From sequence record OP778609: a stretch of DNA of 64,000 bases; one strand, 5' to 3'. Positions within the stretch are counted from its first letter, which is position 1, and each line of letters begins with the position of its first letter. The notes below the pieces were generated by a model. That model was not told the origin of the DNA. It saw only the letters and a program-made list of their open reading frames with translations, and made no database searches. Both the position numbers and the translations under genes were made by a program. Shown here one piece after another: positions 6,256 to 34,166 of the stretch. The stretch is from Escherichia phage A73.

Positions 6256-6287
6256 AAAGGTCACCTTCGGGTGGCCTTTTTTATTAT
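6256..6287 (+). terminator. Rho-independent terminator after capsid gene
   Basis: aaaGGTCACCttcgGGTGGCCtttttt: 7-bp stem with one G-U pair, UUCG loop, T-run. Confidence 0.7.
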
Positions 6288-6364: not shown

Positions 6365-6949
6365 ATGTCTAAGCAAACTCACTTGGAAGTCTTTAAGAGT
6401 GAATATCACATGCTCAAGTTCTTTGGTGAATATCTTGAAAAACTTGATGTAAACACCTCTGCACGTTTAGGTGCATTCCTTTATAGTTACGACGGTAAAC
6501 TGGTTCTTGCTCGTGGACTTTACGATTTCCTAACCCAAATGGAAAAGATGACCGCTCTCGGCATCGATACTCTGGCTTCTGCACAAAAAGGTACAAGTTT
6601 CTTAGTGTTTTTCAAAGAGAAACCTAAAGACCCTTTAAAATTTCGATTAGATGTTAAGAAAATCGAGGCTGTTAAAGAAGCTATCGTTGCTGACACCCCG
6701 TCTAAGGTAATGGAAGAGTCTGTTCTTGTCAATACCAAAGTTGAAGAAGTAGAAGTAAAGGCAGAATCATCTGACCGTACTGAAGAAGAAAAAGCACAGA
6801 TCTTGACTAAAGCTGAAGAACTGCGTGATGACAGCAAAAAGGCTGCATCTAAGGCTGCATTGGAAGCTTTCGCTGTGGAATATGGTATTTCACTGAGCAA
6901 AGGCAAAACCTTTGATGGGATGCTTGAAGATTTAGCTGCTGCACTATAA
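6365..6949 (+). CDS. Hypothetical protein, acidic C-terminal half
   Basis: 194-aa ORF with GGAG RBS between capsid and collagen-like genes; no recognisable motif. Confidence 0.45.
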   Translation: MSKQTHLEVFKSEYHMLKFFGEYLEKLDVNTSARLGAFLYSYDGKLVLARGLYDFLTQMEKMTALGIDTLASAQKGTSFLVFFKEKPKDPLKFRLDVKKIEAVKEAIVADTPSKVMEESVLVNTKVEEVEVKAESSDRTEEEKAQILTKAEELRDDSKKAASKAALEAFAVEYGISLSKGKTFDGMLEDLAAAL

Positions 6950-7002: not shown

Positions 7003-10000
7003 ATGGCTGAATATAATGATAAGGTCGTGGAAGCATTCGTTACTGCCCCAGATCCTGTCGTAACTACCACTGGTGGTGGAGTTATTTTTGACGGTATTGA
7101 AACAGAAGATACTGTATCAACCCTGCTGATTGGTGATGGTACTGCATCCTCCCCTTTACAAGCGCAAGTCAAACTTTCTCGCCGTGCTGGTAACGCCCTG
7201 ACTATCGTTCAATCCGATACCGAGCAAGGCTTGTTTGCTACTGCCGGAGATGCTAAAGTTTCAGCTTCTCAAGTGAACATTGCAAAATACGTAACTGCGG
7301 AAGAAGCTGCTGCACAAGGCGATGCAGGTCTGGAAGGTATTTTGGTAGAGCCTGTCCATGCGACCACCACCGCAGTTGGCGATGCCTTGGAAATTACCGC
7401 AGATCCTTTGACGGCTAAAAAATCCCGCATTTCCCTGAAAGTTTCCCCTTCCGCAACCAACGCGTTATCTGTAGAGTCAGATGGATTGGCAGTTAAAGTC
7501 TCTCCTGCCGTTGACAACAGCCTGCAAGTCCGTGAAGGTGCACTTTACGTAGCTCCTGTTGGTGCTGATATTTCTCAAGACCCAGGTAACAAACTGGAAC
7601 AGCGTTCAGATGGACTGTTCGTAGAAACCATCAAAGGCGACAAAGGTGATCAGGGCGAGCAAGGACCAGAAGGTCCTCAAGGCCCAGCAGGGGAAGCTGG
7701 ACCTGCTGGACCACAGGGTGAAAAAGGCGACAAAGGCGATCAAGGTGAAGTCGGCCCTGCTGGCGCAACTGGCCCTGCTGGCCTGACTGGTGCAACTGGT
7801 CCTCGTGGTATAGAAGGACCTCGTGGCCCTGCTGGTATTGGTATTAATATCCTAGACACCCTTGCATCTGAAGACCAATTACCTTCTGTTGTTGATCTTT
7901 CGAATGGGGATACCTATGTAATAGGACAGAGTTTCTTTACCGTTATCACTGAAGGTGGTATCAAACAATGGAGAAACGTAGGTAACTTCGCTGGACCTGA
8001 AGGTCTTTCTGCATTTGAAGTTGCTGAAACCGCAGGCTTTGTTGGAACAGTTGATGACTGGTTGGCTACCCTTCGTGGTGCTGATGGAATCGGTCTGCAA
8101 TTACTCGGTTCTTTCCAACGAATTGAAGACCTTCCGGCAGAAGAGAACAACCCAGGCGATGCCTACATCATTCAAGAAAAGATGTATGTTTGGACTGGTG
8201 ATACAGATGGCTGGCAACCTGTAGGACAGATCGGTCCTGAAGGTCGTTCTGCTTATCAGGTCTGGCTGGCTAACGGGAACGTAGGTTCTCAGCGTGAATT
8301 CCTTGAATCACTGAAAGGTGAGAAAGGTGATACTGGCGATCAGGGTCCTCAGGGTATCCCAGGTGCAGATGGTAAAAATGCTAACGCCATTAATATCTTA
8401 GGTTCCGTTGCAGATCAGGCGAGTTTGCCAGAAGGTGCAGATGCAGGTGATGCTTACCTGATCGGTACTAACGTATTCGTTTCTGATGGTGCTGGCAACT
8501 GGCAAGACTTGGGATCTTTCCAAGGTCCGCAAGGTCCTACTGGTGCTAAAGGCGACAAGGGGGACAAAGGGGACAAAGGTGACAAAGGCGATAAAGGTGA
8601 TGACAACTATGCCATCGCAGTTGCTAACGGTTTCCAAGGATCAGTAAATGAATACCTTGCATCTATCAAGGGTGAGAAAGGTGACGTTGGTGCAACTGGC
8701 CCTCGTGGATTAGCTGGTCCACAAGGTGAACAAGGTCCTGTTGGTGCGGGTCTGAATATCCTTGGCTCAGTAGCTTCCGAAGACCAATTGCCTCAGACTG
8801 GTATTAGTGAAGGTGATGCTTATCTGATTGAAGCTGATCTTTATATCTTTACTGGCGGTCAGTGGACTAACGTTGGTAACATCAAAGGTCCCCAAGGGGA
8901 TGTAGGACCACAAGGTCCACAAGGTCCTATTGGTCTGACTGGTGCACAAGGACCGCAGGGTGCAACAGGGGCACAAGGTCCTGCTGGTCCCCAAGGTGAG
9001 ACTGGTCCACAAGGTGGTATTGGTCCACAGGGCGAGACTGGCGAGAAAGGTGACAAGGGCGATAAGGGTGATAAGGGTGATACTGGAATTGGTATCGTTG
9101 CTCGTGGTATTGTTGCAACTCAAGAAGCACTTCCTGCCGATGCCACCACTGGTGACTTCTACGTTGTAGAGTCTGAAGGTAATGGTTATGCTTGGGACGG
9201 CACTGCATGGGTACTGACTGGTCTTACTCGTGGACCTCAGGGTCTGAAGGGCGACAAAGGCGACACTGGTGAGAAAGGAGACAAAGGAGACAAAGGCGAC
9301 GCAGGTGATGCACTGAAGCTGAAAGGTTTGGTTGCAACCTCCGCTGAACTTCCTTCTACTGCTGAATTAGGTGACTTCTACGTAGCTGAAGACACTGGAA
9401 TCGGTTACGCTTGGGATGGCGTGGAATTCGTTTCTGCCGGAACCGTTAGAGGACCGCAAGGTGAAGTAGGGCCTCAGGGTGAAATTGGCCCTCAAGGACC
9501 GCAAGGCGAGAAGGGAGATGCTGGCGACCAAGGACCTCAAGGATTGGTCGGTGAAACAGGTGCAAAAGGTGATAAAGGGGATAAGGGTGACGTTGGCTCT
9601 GGTCTGATTCCGAGAGGAACTTTACCGTCTCAAGCAGACCTTCCTCAAACTGGTGAAGTTGGTGACTTCTACGTAGCTAACGATACTGGTATTGGATATG
9701 CTTTTGACGGAACTACATTCGTAGAAGCTGGCGTTGCCCGTGGTCCACAGGGTGAACAAGGACCTCAGGGTGAACAGGGACCTCAAGGTCTTAAAGGGGA
9801 TACTGGTGAAACAGGTGCTCAGGGACCTCAAGGTGCTCAAGGTGAGAAAGGTGATACCGGAGAACGTGGAGAGGTAGGTCCGCAAGGTGATCAGGGACCG
9901 CAAGGTGAGCAAGGTCCTCAGGGTGATATCGGACCAGGTGTAGAGATCATTGGACGATTTGATACCTCTGATGAATTACCTTCCACGGGTACTTTGGGTC

Positions 10001-10803
10001 AAGGTTACCTTATCCAAGGCGACTTCTGGGGTTGGACTGGTGCAGCATACGAGAACTTGGGTCGTATTCAAGGTCCGGTTGGACCAGTAGGTCCTACGGG
10101 TGACCAAGGACCACAAGGCCCTGTCGGTAACAAAGGCGATAAAGGCGACCAAGGGACCCTTTGGGTAGTTTTTGCTCGTGCACCAATGGTGAGCGATGGT
10201 CGTGTTAACGACCTGTACCTCAACTCTTCCACTCTGGAATATTACCGTAAAACTTCCGCAACGAACTGGGCACTGCTCGGATTCTTAGGTGGTGGTAACG
10301 TGTATGACGCACCAGGGGACGGAAAGCTGTATGTCCGTACTGATGGTGGTTGGGTTGAATTACCTACCGCAGAAGTTCTGGAAGCACCTCGTGATGGTAA
10401 CCAATACGTCCGTAAAGACGGCGCTTGGACAACTGTTACAGTTCCTGTAACGGAAGCACCACTTGAAGGTGGATTCTACGTCCGTGAAAATGGTGCGTGG
10501 GTTAAACTGGATCAGTACGATTTACGTGTTGTTGCTTCAACTGGTGCAATTGATGCAAGCTCTGGTAATGCTTGGACTTTAGATGGTACAACCAACAAGT
10601 CCTTGACTATCACCGGATTGCCAGCAGGAAGGGCTAAAACCATAGTTTTACGATTCACGGGTAACGGTGGTCAGATTAACTGGGATAGCCAGATCGCTTG
10701 GTCTAACGGAACAGCACCTACTCTCGGGGCTACTCGCACTATCCTAACCTTGTTCTGGGATGGTGAGTTCCTGACGGGTACTCAAGCAATGACTATAGGT
10801 TAA
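7003..10803 (+). CDS. Collagen-like repeat fibre protein
   Basis: 1266 aa; AGGAG RBS. Eight Gly-X-Y tracts alternate with ~40-aa modules (LP...GD[AF]Y[LV]...W...G); C-terminal globular region with three YVRxDGxW repeats. Confidence 0.8.
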   Translation: MAEYNDKVVEAFVTAPDPVVTTTGGGVIFDGIETEDTVSTLLIGDGTASSPLQAQVKLSRRAGNALTIVQSDTEQGLFATAGDAKVSASQVNIAKYVTAEEAAAQGDAGLEGILVEPVHATTTAVGDALEITADPLTAKKSRISLKVSPSATNALSVESDGLAVKVSPAVDNSLQVREGALYVAPVGADISQDPGNKLEQRSDGLFVETIKGDKGDQGEQGPEGPQGPAGEAGPAGPQGEKGDKGDQGEVGPAGATGPAGLTGATGPRGIEGPRGPAGIGINILDTLASEDQLPSVVDLSNGDTYVIGQSFFTVITEGGIKQWRNVGNFAGPEGLSAFEVAETAGFVGTVDDWLATLRGADGIGLQLLGSFQRIEDLPAEENNPGDAYIIQEKMYVWTGDTDGWQPVGQIGPEGRSAYQVWLANGNVGSQREFLESLKGEKGDTGDQGPQGIPGADGKNANAINILGSVADQASLPEGADAGDAYLIGTNVFVSDGAGNWQDLGSFQGPQGPTGAKGDKGDKGDKGDKGDKGDDNYAIAVANGFQGSVNEYLASIKGEKGDVGATGPRGLAGPQGEQGPVGAGLNILGSVASEDQLPQTGISEGDAYLIEADLYIFTGGQWTNVGNIKGPQGDVGPQGPQGPIGLTGAQGPQGATGAQGPAGPQGETGPQGGIGPQGETGEKGDKGDKGDKGDTGIGIVARGIVATQEALPADATTGDFYVVESEGNGYAWDGTAWVLTGLTRGPQGLKGDKGDTGEKGDKGDKGDAGDALKLKGLVATSAELPSTAELGDFYVAEDTGIGYAWDGVEFVSAGTVRGPQGEVGPQGEIGPQGPQGEKGDAGDQGPQGLVGETGAKGDKGDKGDVGSGLIPRGTLPSQADLPQTGEVGDFYVANDTGIGYAFDGTTFVEAGVARGPQGEQGPQGEQGPQGLKGDTGETGAQGPQGAQGEKGDTGERGEVGPQGDQGPQGEQGPQGDIGPGVEIIGRFDTSDELPSTGTLGQGYLIQGDFWGWTGAAYENLGRIQGPVGPVGPTGDQGPQGPVGNKGDKGDQGTLWVVFARAPMVSDGRVNDLYLNSSTLEYYRKTSATNWALLGFLGGGNVYDAPGDGKLYVRTDGGWVELPTAEVLEAPRDGNQYVRKDGAWTTVTVPVTEAPLEGGFYVRENGAWVKLDQYDLRVVASTGAIDASSGNAWTLDGTTNKSLTITGLPAGRAKTIVLRFTGNGGQINWDSQIAWSNGTAPTLGATRTILTLFWDGEFLTGTQAMTIG
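8548..8601 (+). repeat. Tandem 9-bp coding repeat (Lys-Gly-Asp units) inside collagen-like gene
   Basis: aaaggcgac aagggggac aaaggggac aaaggtgac aaaggcgat aaaggtgat: six near-identical 9-bp units; similar tracts near 9043-9084, 9249-9300, 9559-9590. Confidence 0.8.
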
Positions 10804-10848: not shown

Positions 10849-11484
10849 ATGGTGATCGATAAGATTTATGGCTGGACCCCCATGATCCGCATGTCTGACA
10901 TGCGTTATCCGGTATACCTGGCCGACTACCGTGCTGAATATCCTAACGTATCTATTGGTAGCTTTGTTTACGCTGTCGGTATGGCTGAAGTTGGATATCA
11001 TGCGGTTTATGATGTACCGATGCCGCAAGGTGATGTTGTTACGGAAGGACTTCCAGAATTACGAGAAGACGGTTTCTGGTACAGAACTTGGAACGTTAGA
11101 GATTTCACCGAGCAAGAGATTGCCGATAATCTTATCCGTGAAAAAGAGCAACGCATCAATGAAGCTCGAATGGTTCTAGATAATGAAAGATCTGAGGGTG
11201 TTTTTGTATCCGGTAAAAGATATCAATCCGACGCTCAAGCTTTTACTTATTACAGTTCTATCTCTGCTGTTGCTAAAGATTCACCTGAAGGTGTTTTTCA
11301 CTTAGTGACCTCTGACAATCAGGTGGAGGAATTTTTTGGTGATGACGTTATTGTCCACATCAAAGAAATTCAAAAAGTAAATGCAAAAATTTACGATGAG
11401 TTTGCTAAAATTGTAAAAGTTATCCGCGAAGCAAAATCCCCTGAAGAAATCCCTCAAGTTCCTCCCTCGTTCCAAAATATCTAA
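10849..11484 (+). CDS. Hypothetical protein between the two collagen-like genes
   Basis: 211-aa ORF with AAGGAG RBS; no recognisable motif. Confidence 0.45.
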   Translation: MVIDKIYGWTPMIRMSDMRYPVYLADYRAEYPNVSIGSFVYAVGMAEVGYHAVYDVPMPQGDVVTEGLPELREDGFWYRTWNVRDFTEQEIADNLIREKEQRINEARMVLDNERSEGVFVSGKRYQSDAQAFTYYSSISAVAKDSPEGVFHLVTSDNQVEEFFGDDVIVHIKEIQKVNAKIYDEFAKIVKVIREAKSPEEIPQVPPSFQNI

Positions 11485-11516: not shown

Positions 11517-13100
11517 ATGAGTAAAAGTATTAGCGGAATGGCAGGTCATAATAACGGTGTTTTTTACGGAAATGCCTTTTATGATTTAGAAAGAAAGGTT
11601 AAAATGGATTTTAAAGATATCATGGAAAAAGGTGATTCCAGCCAAACACCTGGTCCAGAAGGACCACAAGGACCAAAAGGGGATACTGGTCCTACCGGAC
11701 CTGTAGGCCCACAAGGTGATACCGGACCTCAGGGACCTGCGGGTTTTCAGGGTCCTGCGGGTTTTCAGGGTCCTGTTGGGGAGACAGGCCCTGCTGGCCC
11801 TGAAGGTAAAGAAGGACCCCAAGGCCCTCAAGGGGAGCAAGGTGTGGCTGGACCCACTGGACCTAAAGGTGATACTGGCGATCAGGGTCCTCAAGGAGAA
11901 CAAGGTCCTCAAGGTATTAAAGGGGACACTGGTGAACAGGGTCCTGCCGGACAAGAAGGACCAATAGGTCCAACTGGACCGACTGGCCCTGCCGGACCAA
12001 AAGGGGATGTTGGACCTCAGGGACCTAAAGGTGAAACTGGACCTCAGGGACCTATAGGACCACAAGGCCCTCAAGGGGATGTTGGCCCTGTAGGACCAGC
12101 AGGACTTACTTTCCGAGGTTTTTATGATCCTTTAGTTGAATACTCTCAGAACGATACTGTATCTTACAACGGATCTACTTATTTTTCCTTAAGAACAAGC
12201 ACAGGCGCTAGTCCAGACACATCACTTGAAGATTGGTCTTTATTGGCAGCAGAGGGAGCAAGAGGACCAGCAGGCCCTACAGGCCCTCAGGGACCTAAAG
12301 GCGATCAGGGTGAGATTGGTCCTGCCGGAGCTACTGGTCCTGAAGGTCCAATAGGTCCAACTGGCCCAACTGGCCCTCAAGGCCCTCAAGGGGATAAAGG
12401 AGATAAAGGAGAGGCTGGTCCTCAAGGACCTAAGGGTGATCAAGGGGTCAGAGGAGAACAAGGTCCACAAGGAATAACTGGGTCTACTGGCCCTGCTGGT
12501 CCGCAGGGGCCTAAAGGTGACAAAGGGGATGCAGGTCCTCAGGGTTTGGATGGGGCAACTGGATCAACTGGCGCTCAAGGCCCTCAAGGCCCTCAAGGCC
12601 CTCAAGGTATTAGAGGGGCAACTGGTCCGCAGGGGCCTAAAGGTGAAACTGGTGCTACCGGCCCACAGGGTCCAGCAGGTCAAAATAATACAAACAATCC
12701 AGTTTATACAACTCAACTTTCCGTATCGACAAGCTACTCAGCTATAGCTATACCAAACAACCCTGGCATCTCTTTTTCAGTCAGAAGGGTTGGGAATAAC
12801 ATTGAGTACTCTTTTATAGGCAACTCAATTGCAGGAAGGTATTTTGATGTTGAGGTTGTAAACTTTCCATCTGCTAACGTAGTTAAGAGATATCAGGCAA
12901 ATCACACAATTGCAGGAACTAGCAGGTATGTTGTAGGTGATCCTGCGGGTTATACTGGTGGAGGATATAAAAGGATTCAATTCTCAGCTAGAGATTGGGG
13001 AGATAAAAACATTATAATGATTGATGTTTTTCATCTTCAGCGCCCATCTGATACTAGTTTTAACATCGCCATTAGGATTGAGACATTCAAACTCCCTTGA
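11517..13100 (+). CDS. Collagen-like protein with C-terminal globular domain
   Basis: 527 aa; ~150-residue uninterrupted Gly-X-Y tract, short globular insert, second Gly-X-Y tract, then ~140-aa non-collagenous C-terminal domain. Confidence 0.8.
12575..12607 (+). repeat. Tandem 9-bp coding repeat (Gly-Pro-Gln units)
   Basis: tcaaggccc repeated about 3.5 times within the collagen-like gene. Confidence 0.75.
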
Positions 13101-13105
13101 TAATA

Positions 13106-13135
13106 AAAGCCACCCTCGGGTGGCTTTATTTTTAT
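13106..13135 (+). terminator. Rho-independent terminator
   Basis: aaaGCCACCCtcgGGTGGCtttatttttat hairpin plus T-run. Confidence 0.65.
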
Positions 13136-13191
13136 ACAAATGACTTTCTTTTTATTTTATGGTAAAATGTTCTAATACACTGGAGGAATAT

Positions 13192-13713
13192 ATGACTGAT
13201 GAAGAAGTAGTACAACTTGTCCGTAACTTTTTAGGCGGTCTTACTGAAGATGAAATGCCTGATAGCATGATTCTGTTTTTCTATAATAAATGGAAGGTCT
13301 GTTATGATTTAGAAAACAGACCTGATCAATTCTCCATTATTCTTTATAACACCGTATTAGATTGTGTCCGCTGGCTTCTGGTTCAAAGCGTTTCAAGTGG
13401 TGCTTCTGGCATCCGTGAAAGATTTGAGAAGGTAGGTGATGAGACGATATCTGTTAAGTATGGAGATAGCTCAGGTAATTGGCAAAATTTCTTGGATTAC
13501 CTGCTTGAACATCCCGAATATATAGATCCTTGTTTAAAAGAGGCAAACGGGAATGGTTTAGGTCTTGTCATCATTGGCGGCGTAAGAAGAAATGAAGTTA
13601 ACCGTGTTCGTAGAAACCCAAATTCTCATAACGGTTTCATGGAGCAAGGTATCTATCCCGCACCAGGTACAAGATCCAGTGTAAGAAAGCGTAATCCGTG
13701 GATGGTTAAGTAA
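13192..13713 (+). CDS. Putative head-tail connector/adaptor protein
   Basis: ORF track gives 13159; ATG at 13192 follows a GGAGG RBS. Function guessed from position between head and tail genes. Confidence 0.35.
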   Translation: MTDEEVVQLVRNFLGGLTEDEMPDSMILFFYNKWKVCYDLENRPDQFSIILYNTVLDCVRWLLVQSVSSGASGIRERFEKVGDETISVKYGDSSGNWQNFLDYLLEHPEYIDPCLKEANGNGLGLVIIGGVRRNEVNRVRRNPNSHNGFMEQGIYPAPGTRSSVRKRNPWMVK

Positions 13714-32930: not shown

Positions 32931-34166
32931 ATGATCCCTTTTCCAATTATTAATTTCGGTGGCGGTGTTCCACTACCTGTAGGCGTTACAATCAAGTATG
33001 CAGTAAGTACCAGCACCGGAAATATTTTTATTCTGCTTACCAATGGGCATCTATATGTAACCGGATCTAATTATCTAAACGGGCTTGGTAAAACAGGGAC
33101 CACAAATAATGCAACTTCGGGATGGTCACTTACTAACACAGGTGTTGAAGAAGTTTATGAGGTAGGAACAGAAAGTACACTGTACGGCGGTGTGTGGGTT
33201 AAGAAAAATAATAACCACTATGAATATATCTCTGCCGTAGTCTTTCCCACTGTTGACACAACTCTCCAAAACAGTTGGAACGTCTTGCCTGAATCCGCAT
33301 ACATCGTTGATGGTGTAAATATCTTATCTTCAGCAATACAAATAGCCAGATCATACGCGATCCAACCCGACGGCACTGTTTACAGACTGCTTCCAGAGGG
33401 GCCGCAAGTAGCTTGGCCTGAAAAAACAAAATACCTGTATTTTGCAAACTATAATGCCATTCGTGTCGAGGTGGATGGGACTTTAAAATACCGAGGCGAC
33501 AATGGTGTAGATCAAGTGGCAGGCACTTCTGCCGGAACAACATTATCAACTTGGACAACCATCGGGGATTCTTCTGTAAGGTATATTAGGGCAAAATGTG
33601 CTCGTGGTCAAGTGGCTAACACGAGTGGCGGTTCAGGTGCTCAATCTATTGTACTTGTTGTTGCACAGAGGGAAGATGGGTCATGGGATGCAGTTGGATC
33701 GACAGCAAGAGCAGGGATAAACTCAACCAACGTCCTCGGTCCTAATTTAGCACCTATGACAAGCATACCTGCGGGGGTTGAAGTTTATGTCACTAACCAG
33801 GTCAGTTATACAAACGCAAGTGTGGGAACAAGGGGAGCATTGCAAGTGTTCATCTCCGATAGGGTTAATGGCATCTATCAATCAACGGGTGGACAAGGTG
33901 GATACACCTATTCTTTATTTAGGAATCTTTCTATAACCACTAATGCAACATCTTTCGATAATATATCTGAAGATATTATAAACGATGGTGGTATCCTTCA
34001 CATGACGGGTTCATTATCCGATACTTTCAAAGTGATTGTTAGTGGTAATGGTAATCTTTACTGGACAGGGAGAGGATATTCAGGGGCTATGTACCCTGCT
34101 GACTTTACGGCCTCTAATACGATAGCTCAGAAGTTTAACTTGGAAGGTATAGTTATTCCAGCATAA
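32931..34166 (+). CDS. Putative distal fibre/adhesin protein
   Basis: 411-aa Gly/Thr/Ser/Asn-rich ORF with AGGAGGA RBS; last gene of the + strand block, after the long fibre. Confidence 0.4.
   Translation: MIPFPIINFGGGVPLPVGVTIKYAVSTSTGNIFILLTNGHLYVTGSNYLNGLGKTGTTNNATSGWSLTNTGVEEVYEVGTESTLYGGVWVKKNNNHYEYISAVVFPTVDTTLQNSWNVLPESAYIVDGVNILSSAIQIARSYAIQPDGTVYRLLPEGPQVAWPEKTKYLYFANYNAIRVEVDGTLKYRGDNGVDQVAGTSAGTTLSTWTTIGDSSVRYIRAKCARGQVANTSGGSGAQSIVLVVAQREDGSWDAVGSTARAGINSTNVLGPNLAPMTSIPAGVEVYVTNQVSYTNASVGTRGALQVFISDRVNGIYQSTGGQGGYTYSLFRNLSITTNATSFDNISEDIINDGGILHMTGSLSDTFKVIVSGNGNLYWTGRGYSGAMYPADFTASNTIAQKFNLEGIVIPA

Follow-up and report, generated by a model that had tools for sequence, protein, structure and literature searches.

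A gene lying between the capsid genes and the head-to-tail adaptor gene of Escherichia phage A73 (sequence record OP778609) codes for a large collagen-like protein, which raises the question of what kind of structure this protein forms and to which part of the virion the structure is attached. The stretch of DNA that we analysed, referred to here as the window, is 64,000 nucleotides long, and all coordinates are counted from its first letter. The gene in the window is a 100% match to W70_131 of Escherichia phage W70 (OP778610.1; Septuagintavirus, Vequintavirinae), the deposited product name of which is 'tail fiber protein', and the W70 names are used throughout. The original prediction, made from the letters of the window, had described a collagen-like protein of 1266 amino acids (aa) with eight modules of the form LP...GDxY...W...G, and had raised the possibility of a head fibre rather than a tail fibre. 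The description is borne out by the open reading frame (ORF), the Pfam Collagen match and the alignment of the modules; the head location, for which gene position was the only specific basis, is not supported. By analogy with known systems, W70_131 appears to work like a trimeric phage adhesion fibre that combines the foldon principle of fibritin with collagen of the Scl/BclA type, and its central array appears to serve as a spacer of adjustable length that separates a base and a tip, both of them conserved.

7003..10803, + strand: W70_131, segmented collagen-like virion fibre protein (ATG start, 1266 aa, 128.5 kDa, pI 4.2, no Cys).
7636..10161, + strand: collagen/module array, aa 212-1053, with nine tracts broken by modules and linkers.

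The Pfam Collagen model (PF01391) matches W70_131 in 8 stretches with an E-value of 8.7e-45 (150.8 bits against a cut-off of 27.2), so that the Gly-X-Y periodicity is far beyond chance. When a tract is counted from at least 7 triplets upwards, the protein contains nine tracts of 7-23 triplets each, with 129 triplets in total. The eight alternating tracts initially proposed are thus nine, and their alternation with the modules is not strictly 1:1, as three linkers of about 25 aa intervene. With C standing for a collagen tract, A for a module and B for a linker, the order from the N- to the C-terminus is the N-terminal domain (aa 1-211); C1, A1, B1, A2, B2; C2, A3; C3, B3; C4, A4; C5, A5; C6, A6; C7, A7; C8, A8; C9, A9* (degenerate); three foldon-like hairpins; and a knob. 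The X positions of the triplets are chiefly occupied by Pro, Asp and Glu and the Y positions by Gln, Lys and Thr, with Pro accounting for 17% of X and Y taken together. GPQ triplets prevail at the starts of the tracts, while 28 KGD/KGE pairs are concentrated at the C-terminal ends of most of them, beside the following module. Charge pairs of this type stabilise triple helices without hydroxyproline. With 0.286 nm allowed for each residue, the predicted triple helix of the tracts by themselves comes to about 111 nm; the tail of W70 measures 120 nm and its head 69 nm.

Hydroxyproline-free Gly-X-Y sequence with charged pairs and Pro/Gln, accompanied by a non-collagen trimerisation domain, is also a feature of Scl1/Scl2, Lcl, BclA, SPP1 gp12 and the prophage protein EPclA. 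The NCBIfam models for Scl/Lcl proteins score W70_131 at 171.7-189.2 bits, covering only the triplet regions, against curated cut-offs of 325-500, and a protein so far below these cut-offs is not an Scl/Lcl adhesin. It further differs from the bacterial Scl/Lcl proteins in having no LPXTG anchor or signal peptide and in a triple helix that is broken eight times by a β module. When the whole protein was searched by sequence against the PDB, the matches were confined to animal collagens, BclA (in its collagen region only) and constructs carrying a foldon tag; no chain from a phage virion was among them.

The breaks in the collagen are formed by two kinds of element. The eight modules, each of about 45 aa, follow the pattern [ILV]x[ILV]xG...LP...GDxY[VIL]...W/Y...G, with L, P, G, Y, G and G as invariant columns in their alignment. 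As had been proposed, they fall into two subfamilies: amino acid identity is 40-56% among M1, M3 and M4 and 43-59% among M5, M6 and M7, as against 22-40% between the groups. The second element is a linker of about 25 aa (SAYQVWLANG..FLESLKG-like), which is present in three copies.

7843..7986, + strand: module A1, aa 281-328, of the GDxYVI type.
7999..8082, + strand: linker B1, aa 333-360, ..AFEVAETAGFVGTVDDWLATLRG.
8095..8235, + strand: module A2, aa 365-411.
8248..8331, + strand: linker B2, aa 416-443, SAYQVWLANGNVGSQREFLESLKG.
8389..8523, + strand: module A3, aa 463-507.
8605..8685, + strand: linker B3, aa 535-561, NYAIAVANGFQGSVNEYLASIKG.
8752..8886, + strand: module A4, aa 584-628.
9094..9231, + strand: module A5, aa 698-743, of the GDFYV..GYAWDG subfamily (repeat family D7).
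9313..9450, + strand: module A6, aa 771-816, of the GDFYV subfamily; the unit is missing from the phiTE and CR9 orthologues.
9604..9741, + strand: module A7, aa 868-913, of the GDFYV subfamily.
9940..10071, + strand: module A8, aa 980-1023.

A profile built from the eight modules matches 4,828 cluster representatives at E <= 1e-3, 739 of them at <= 1e-10 and 90 at <= 1e-30, with up to 16 module copies in a single protein. In nine module carriers that we sampled, found on contigs of up to about 250-290 kb, the only Pfam domains are Collagen and, in some, Fibritin_C, and one of the nine has no Pfam match at all. There is no Pfam or NCBIfam family for the modules, for the linkers or for the product of the adjacent gene W70_130, and a search of the PDB with the module profile gave no credible match (best E about 0.1, to acyl-CoA dehydrogenases). 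Given that the profile matches thousands of clusters and that its carriers combine the module with Collagen and, in some cases, Fibritin_C, the collagen, module and foldon fibre is a widespread but uncurated architecture.

The non-collagen C-terminus comprises 213 aa, rather than the roughly 300 aa of the original prediction, and consists of a degenerate ninth module, three foldon-like hairpins and the knob. The three proposed YVRxDGxW repeats are present at about aa 1098-1173, the third reading YVRENGAW.

10162..10311, + strand: degenerate ninth module, aa 1054-1103, a four-stranded β unit (AlphaFold 2 (AF2) predicted local distance difference test (pLDDT) ~80).
10294..10521, + strand: three tandem foldon-like β-hairpin repeats, aa 1098-1173, supported by Fibritin_C and by alignment with the foldon.
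10525..10800, + strand: distal β-sandwich knob, aa 1175-1266 (~90 aa), the presumed ligand-binding tip (AF2 eight strands, pLDDT ~75-80).

Pfam Fibritin_C matches with E = 1.3e-10 (41.7 bits against a cut-off of 21), over profile positions 53-92 of 93 only, and both sequence and fold searches of the PDB relate the C-terminal repeats to foldon constructs. Each repeat is identical to the T4 foldon at 11-14 of 27 positions, and the key E/D, Y, R and W residues are kept in all three. The likeness to T4 fibritin (Wac) thus lies in a C-terminal foldon-type β-hairpin with an E/D, Y, R, W core; the shaft of fibritin is a segmented α-helical coiled coil ending in a single foldon, whereas that of W70_131 is made of collagen and β modules and leads into three tandem foldon-like repeats and a knob. 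As neither the coiled-coil shaft nor the N-terminal domain of fibritin is found in it, W70_131 is not a fibritin. For aa 1045-1266, AF2 modelling of the monomer gave a mean pLDDT of 63.8, with low confidence in the three hairpins, as might be expected if three chains are needed for folding. In Foldseek searches with the C-terminal region, the best match is the capsid spike gp52 of Pseudomonas phage Pa223 (PDB 9ny6; E = 2.7e-4, probability 0.98), with a tailspike, Solidus gp83, matching almost as well (E = 4.3e-4). The likeness to gp52, a protein of 294 aa with an N-terminal capsid anchor, a triple β-helix and a TNF-fold knob, concerns the trimeric β stalk and the jelly-roll/TNF-type knob, at 14% identity and a TM of about 0.27; gp52 contains no collagen, and its capsid-anchor arm has no detected counterpart in W70_131. 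The resemblance is one of distal parts and says nothing on the site of attachment.

At the other end of the protein, the N-terminal domain is the presumed site of attachment to the virion.

7003..7635, + strand: N-terminal non-collagen domain, aa 1-211, the presumed virion-attachment end.

Within it, conservation is highest over the first ~66 aa. The phyletic pattern of the domain is narrow: tblastn detects it in only 36 phage records, Vequintavirinae-like, a word-indexed protein search recovered one homologue only, and there is no paralogue within the window. Its sole relative in the PDB is the long tail fibre gp015 of phage 7-7-1 (9rkv_M), with which aa 3-127 of W70_131 align at aa 91-215 (E = 6e-5). 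Residues 1-120 of gp015 are the baseplate anchor, so that the likeness overlaps the end of the anchoring region. The first 90 residues of gp015 have no counterpart in W70_131, and gp015 continues as a β-helix and a jelly-roll tip without collagen.

A repetitive coding sequence assembled from short reads might be suspected of being mis-assembled, or of belonging to a decaying gene in which the expansion has no function. We consider this hardly credible. The gene is 3801 nt long in W70, A7_1, UPEC06 and LTH01 and 3792 nt long in A5-4, with 88.8-100% nucleotide identity at 100% coverage, and the ORF is full-length in all five; the sole long direct repeats within it are diverged triplet tracts, with no long exact copies. 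Because five independent genomes keep the repeat organisation and there are no long exact DNA repeats, the organisation is not an assembly artefact. Moreover, all insertions and deletions are in frame and unit-sized, and peptides are abundant in virions of both W70 and CB7.

The protein belongs to PHROG 3904, 'tail fiber protein', which it matches over its full length (E = 0, 1068.7 bits). This family includes the orthologues phiTE gp215, CB7_10, CR9 gp008 and the 4MG_067-type Seunavirus proteins, which share the same end domains, module types and gene order. The phiTE orthologue has 1099 aa and is 63.6% identical to W70_131, which has in addition exactly one unit of collagen tract and M6-type module (76 aa) and one whole foldon-like hairpin (27 aa); five indels in the collagen, of 6, 15, 15, 9 and 15 aa, also set the two apart, all of them multiples of three. 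As these differences are whole units, the expansion by duplication, foreseen as stepwise in the original prediction, is supported, and unit counts also vary among the other orthologues. The orthologues have about 6-8 modules, 82-129 triplets and 1-3 foldon-like repeats at lengths of 1266 aa in W70, UPEC06 and LTH01, 1263 in A5-4, 1099 in phiTE and CB7, 1093 in CR9, 1092 in SSBI34, 960 in Kashira and 875 in 4MG. W70 and its close relatives thus have the longest versions, with 8 modules, 129 triplets and 3 foldon-like repeats, as against 875-1099 aa, some 6-7 modules and 1-2 foldon-like repeats elsewhere. The duplications themselves appear to be old, because the DNA identity among modules does not exceed 70%. 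The proposed comparison of gene length across relatives thus spans 1266 aa down to 324 aa, the lower end being set by Salmonella phage GEC_vB_MG, in which a mini-form of the protein consists of the N-terminal domain, four triplets, the ninth module, the foldon-like repeats and the knob. Its composition shows that the gene can outlast the loss of the entire collagen/module array.

W70_131 is a virion component. Published electrospray ionisation tandem mass spectrometry of purified W70 virions recorded 2032 spectra for the 129-kDa protein, the highest of the 28 proteins detected and above the 1596 of the major capsid protein, and its band is visible on sodium dodecyl sulphate polyacrylamide gel electrophoresis of the virions. 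Its absence from virions, which had been named as a finding that would speak against a fibre, is thereby contradicted. In the W70 study it was listed among the structural proteins of the virion, with its function unknown, and collagen was not mentioned by the authors. In Certrevirus, the orthologue CB7_10 was likewise found in virions, with 39 peptides and 46% coverage. An estimate of copy number from the spectral counts was rejected, as the calibration is poor: the sheath (~144 copies) scores 13.5 spectra per observable peptide, below the 16.1 of the portal (12 copies).

Taken together, we put about even chances on W70_131 being the subunit of a long, thin and flexible homotrimeric virion fibre. 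In such a fibre, the stacked foldon-like hairpins would bring the three chains into register from the C-terminal end, with all three chains contributing to each layer of hairpins, as they do in T4 fibritin. Every module would then be a local trimeric node, which re-registers the chains, nucleates the adjacent collagen segment and also serves as a hinge; with the KGD/KGE-rich tract ends abutting the modules, the result would resemble beads on a string. The length of the fibre would evolve by gain and loss of whole units, the conserved N-terminal domain would anchor it to the particle, and the knob, with the co-inherited W70_130, would form the distal binding tip. Its place would be the periphery of the baseplate, as a third set of fibres beside the short fibre W70_112 and the long fibre W70_107, and its role to establish a reversible first contact at long reach, either with the cell or with its flagella; among the Certrevirus relatives, phiTE and CR3 are flagellotropic.

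We regard a position at the tail or baseplate periphery as evenly poised between right and wrong. A tail location is suggested by the resemblance of the N-terminal region to part of the baseplate long tail fibre gp015. The cryo-electron microscopy study of phiTE reports just one fibre-like density without an assignment, at the baseplate, and in the stretches covered (108-142.3 kb) of the RefSeq record used for that study the only genes named 'tail fiber protein' are 215 (the orthologue), 236 (the short fibre with immunoglobulin domains) and 241 (the long fibre). The 3.6 Å capsid reconstruction of phiTE describes only the major capsid protein (MCP), decoration trimers and a hexamer-centred 'Pagoda' density, and the connector, at about 3.1-3.3 Å, only portal, adaptor, head-completion and terminator rings, with no fibre, collar or whisker base described. 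A tail location is also favoured by the recurrence of the region of the ninth module and C-terminus (tblastn, query residues 1-67/75) in rV5-like proteins annotated as collagen-domain lateral tail fibres, and the region is found in phi92 gp151 as well.

Several observations weigh against this reading. The identification of the third fibre of phiTE with gp215 comes from annotation, the main text of the phiTE study never naming gp215; the PHROG 3904 name is likewise annotation only. The similarity to gp015 covers mostly a shaft segment. The fibre gene stands between the capsid and adaptor genes, in a terminator-bounded block with a gene of the capsid-decoration type and away from the baseplate fibre genes, and its product yields 50.8 spectra per observable peptide against 22 and 36 for the baseplate fibres. 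The closest fold at the C-terminus is that of a capsid spike, though in distal, non-anchoring parts. Finally, trimerisation, the part of the modules as nodes and a function in binding are matters that we infer; the monomer model has the low mean confidence given above. Accounts of other phages with related genes gave no help on position: the Agrican357virus paper, on jumbo phages, says nothing of where the homologous fibre sits, and that on phi92 describes no such fibre, only gene 125 between capsid gp124 and adaptor gp126.

The first alternative to a baseplate fibre is the head fibre, in which the N-terminal domain would bind pentons or hexamer centres and collagen fibres of about 150 nm would radiate from the capsid to catch flagella or the cell surface. 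The locus itself is the main point in its favour, and its features are as follows.

6256..6279, + strand: strong intrinsic terminator after the major capsid gene, a 10-bp stem followed by a T-run (stem AAAGGTCACC...GGTGGCCTTT).
6365..6949: W70_132, conserved gene between the capsid and fibre genes; its C-terminal ~54 aa match the rV5-type 'inhibitor of prohead protease'.
10849..11484, + strand: W70_130, 211 aa, virion protein with 114 mass spectrometry (MS) spectra, encoded directly downstream of the fibre gene.
11517..13100, + strand: W70_129, 527 aa, second collagen-like virion protein (Pfam Collagen E = 1.3e-47; 728 MS spectra).
13106..13127, + strand: strong intrinsic terminator after W70_129 and before the adaptor gene (stem AAAGCCACCC...GGGTGGCTTT).
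13159..13713: W70_128, head-to-tail adaptor (PDB 9cc7_D, E = 2e-63; phi92 gp126).

Upstream of the fibre gene lie the portal, protease, decoration and major capsid genes, and the capsid and decoration proteins of W70 match those of phiTE in PDB 9cul (E = 9e-204 and 3e-52). The gene order MCP, small head gene, fibre, W70_130-like gene, variable slot and adaptor is common to the orthologues, synteny being kept in phiTE, CB7, CR9, SSBI34, Kashira, 4MG, UPEC06 and A5-4. The two terminators are near-identical and bracket W70_132 to W70_129, and in phiTE terminators are annotated at the equivalent place after the capsid gene and after gene 217, which suggests that W70_132 to W70_129 form a separately regulated late transcription unit.

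The variable slot, held by W70_129 in W70, is filled in phiTE by gp217, the protein assigned to the Pagoda density. Whole-protein BLASTP of W70_129 against gp217 was not significant. Over their N-terminal ~40 aa, W70_129, A5-4_226 and the homologue in UPEC06 nevertheless align with phiTE gp217, CB7_12, CR9 gp010, an SSBI34 protein and 4MG_065, the last of which is annotated as 'putative phage head fiber protein', and hhalign of the W70_129-type and gp217-type N-terminal profiles gave E = 2.5e-5 over 32 columns, with a probability of 75%. In CR9 and SSBI34 the Pagoda-type N-terminus leads directly into short Gly-X-Y tracts. If the assignment of gp217 is right, W70_129 is thus probably a capsid-anchored collagen fibre, and it appears to be the better head-fibre candidate of the two, so that the idea of a head fibre may fit the locus, though by way of W70_129. 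SPP1 gp12 is a small binder of hexamer centres of the capsid, and its logic would by analogy fit W70_129 better than W70_131. An interruption midway through the collagen region of W70_129 (12119..12190, aa ~203-223) gives a weak, sub-threshold match to CBM_5_12 (E = 0.0012, 19.3 against 26.2 bits).

For W70_131 itself, we consider the head fibre possible but rather unlikely. Beyond the position of the gene in a terminator-bounded block with the Pagoda-type slot, it is favoured by a spectrum count that tops those of all virion proteins and by a yield of spectra per observable peptide above that of the baseplate fibres, by the nearness of the C-terminal fold to the Pa223 capsid spike, and by flagellotropism in the Certrevirus relatives, the flagellotropic phage 7-7-1 being reported to use capsid fibres on flagella; the Pagoda density, moreover, was assigned to gp217 from MS abundance alone and never modelled. 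Against it, the calibration of the spectral counts cannot be relied upon, the parts that resemble the Pa223 spike are the distal stalk and knob rather than the capsid anchor, the N-terminal anchor of the Pagoda family is present in W70_129 and not in W70_131, the only PDB match of the N-terminal region is a baseplate fibre, and the icosahedral map of phiTE, as described, contains only MCP, decoration trimers and Pagoda. A bolder version, which we hold only tentatively and think doubtful, would make W70_131 a many-copy collagen 'tentacle' of about 150 nm, in keeping with its leading spectrum count, anchored to the capsid or otherwise away from the baseplate, which together with W70_129 would form a hairy head for the long-range capture of flagella or cell surfaces, the module being an undescribed but widespread domain for trimer registration and hinging that makes fibre length adjustable.

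The second alternative is a neck whisker, a collagen analogue of T4 fibritin fixed to the head-tail junction, whose foldon tip would hold or chaperone the long tail fibres. The foldon-like C-terminus would fit such a role, as would a cassette that ends just upstream of the adaptor and Neck1 genes, and it has been proposed that the long fibre of phiTE bends towards the capsid and makes contact with the third fibre; a knob better conserved than the distal half of the long fibre would also suit a phage-encoded or otherwise conserved partner. We nonetheless think the whisker improbable, given that the connector of phiTE has been resolved without any collar or whisker base being described, that W70_131 has no coiled coil and matches fibritin in the foldon region only and not at the N-terminus, and that a shaft ranging from 4 to 129 triplets among orthologues suits a fixed geometry poorly.

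Returning to the fibre at the baseplate periphery, its proposed tip can be characterised further from conservation and gene neighbourhood. The knob is 98.9% identical between W70 and UPEC06 (residues 67-211 of the N-terminal domain: 87.6%) and about 60% identical to those of phiTE and CR9, phages with hosts in other genera; for the distal half of the long tail fibre, by contrast, the identity is 36%. Because the knob is not hypervariable across phages of different host genera, the tip probably binds something conserved and is probably not the main determinant of host range. Homologues of W70_130 are present in 110 phage records, directly downstream of a match to the fibre C-terminal domain, and the same adjacency is seen in the jumbo phages Ea35-70, PhiEaH1, Noxifer, RSL2, Psa21 and FLC4-11C, which include Erwinia, Pseudomonas and Ralstonia phages and lack the W70-type N-terminal domain. 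As these homologues track the fibre's C-terminal domain even where the N-terminal domain is missing, W70_130 is probably a tip-associated assembly or adhesin partner, possibly of a new kind, and not the virion anchor. Its orthologue CB7_11 is MS-confirmed in virions, and its AF2 model has a pLDDT of 91.9; there is no informative solved relative in the PDB, and no homology or fold similarity to the Tfa, gp38 or gp57A chaperones.

W70_132, the family of which occurs in rV5-like and Klebsiella phages, was entertained as a fibre chaperone and rejected, given the prohead-protease-inhibitor annotation of its relatives and its not being detected in virions; it appears to be a gene of head morphogenesis. 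An alternative candidate for the unmodelled third fibre of phiTE is the product of a gene far from the block.

32931..34166: W70_106, 411 aa, 44 kDa virion protein with 115 spectra, encoded just after the long tail fibre gene.

With phiTE gp242 it shares 40% identity, and the only other match is a faint one to RCC1 repeats. At about 34200 of the window both the GC skew and the coding strand switch, the structural module being on the + strand up to 34166 and later genes on the - strand.

The gene and its annotation were public before this analysis, as was the presence of its product in virions, and collagen-like phage fibres are a well-known kind of protein. A literature search combining collagen-like, foldon and tail fibre found no description of the architecture of W70_131; nor does the literature searched describe the details of this architecture, the foldons in tandem, how far the module family extends, the evolution of length by whole units, the linkage of W70_130 to the tip and the link of W70_129 to Pagoda. 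W70_131 is a natural collagen-foldon fusion, the design principle that protein engineers use for nucleating collagen peptides, and the design of fibres would gain a new building block from a structure of one collagen-module-collagen unit. The range of lengths from 324 to 1266 aa, spanned by whole units, is a clean natural experiment on fibre reach versus adsorption. For the phages themselves, W70_131 is the virion protein of W70 with the most spectra, is conserved in at least three genera of the Vequintavirinae and is unmodelled in the structural atlas of phiTE, so that placing it would complete the model of the virion and could reveal with which organ the flagellotropic phages of Certrevirus capture flagella or surfaces.

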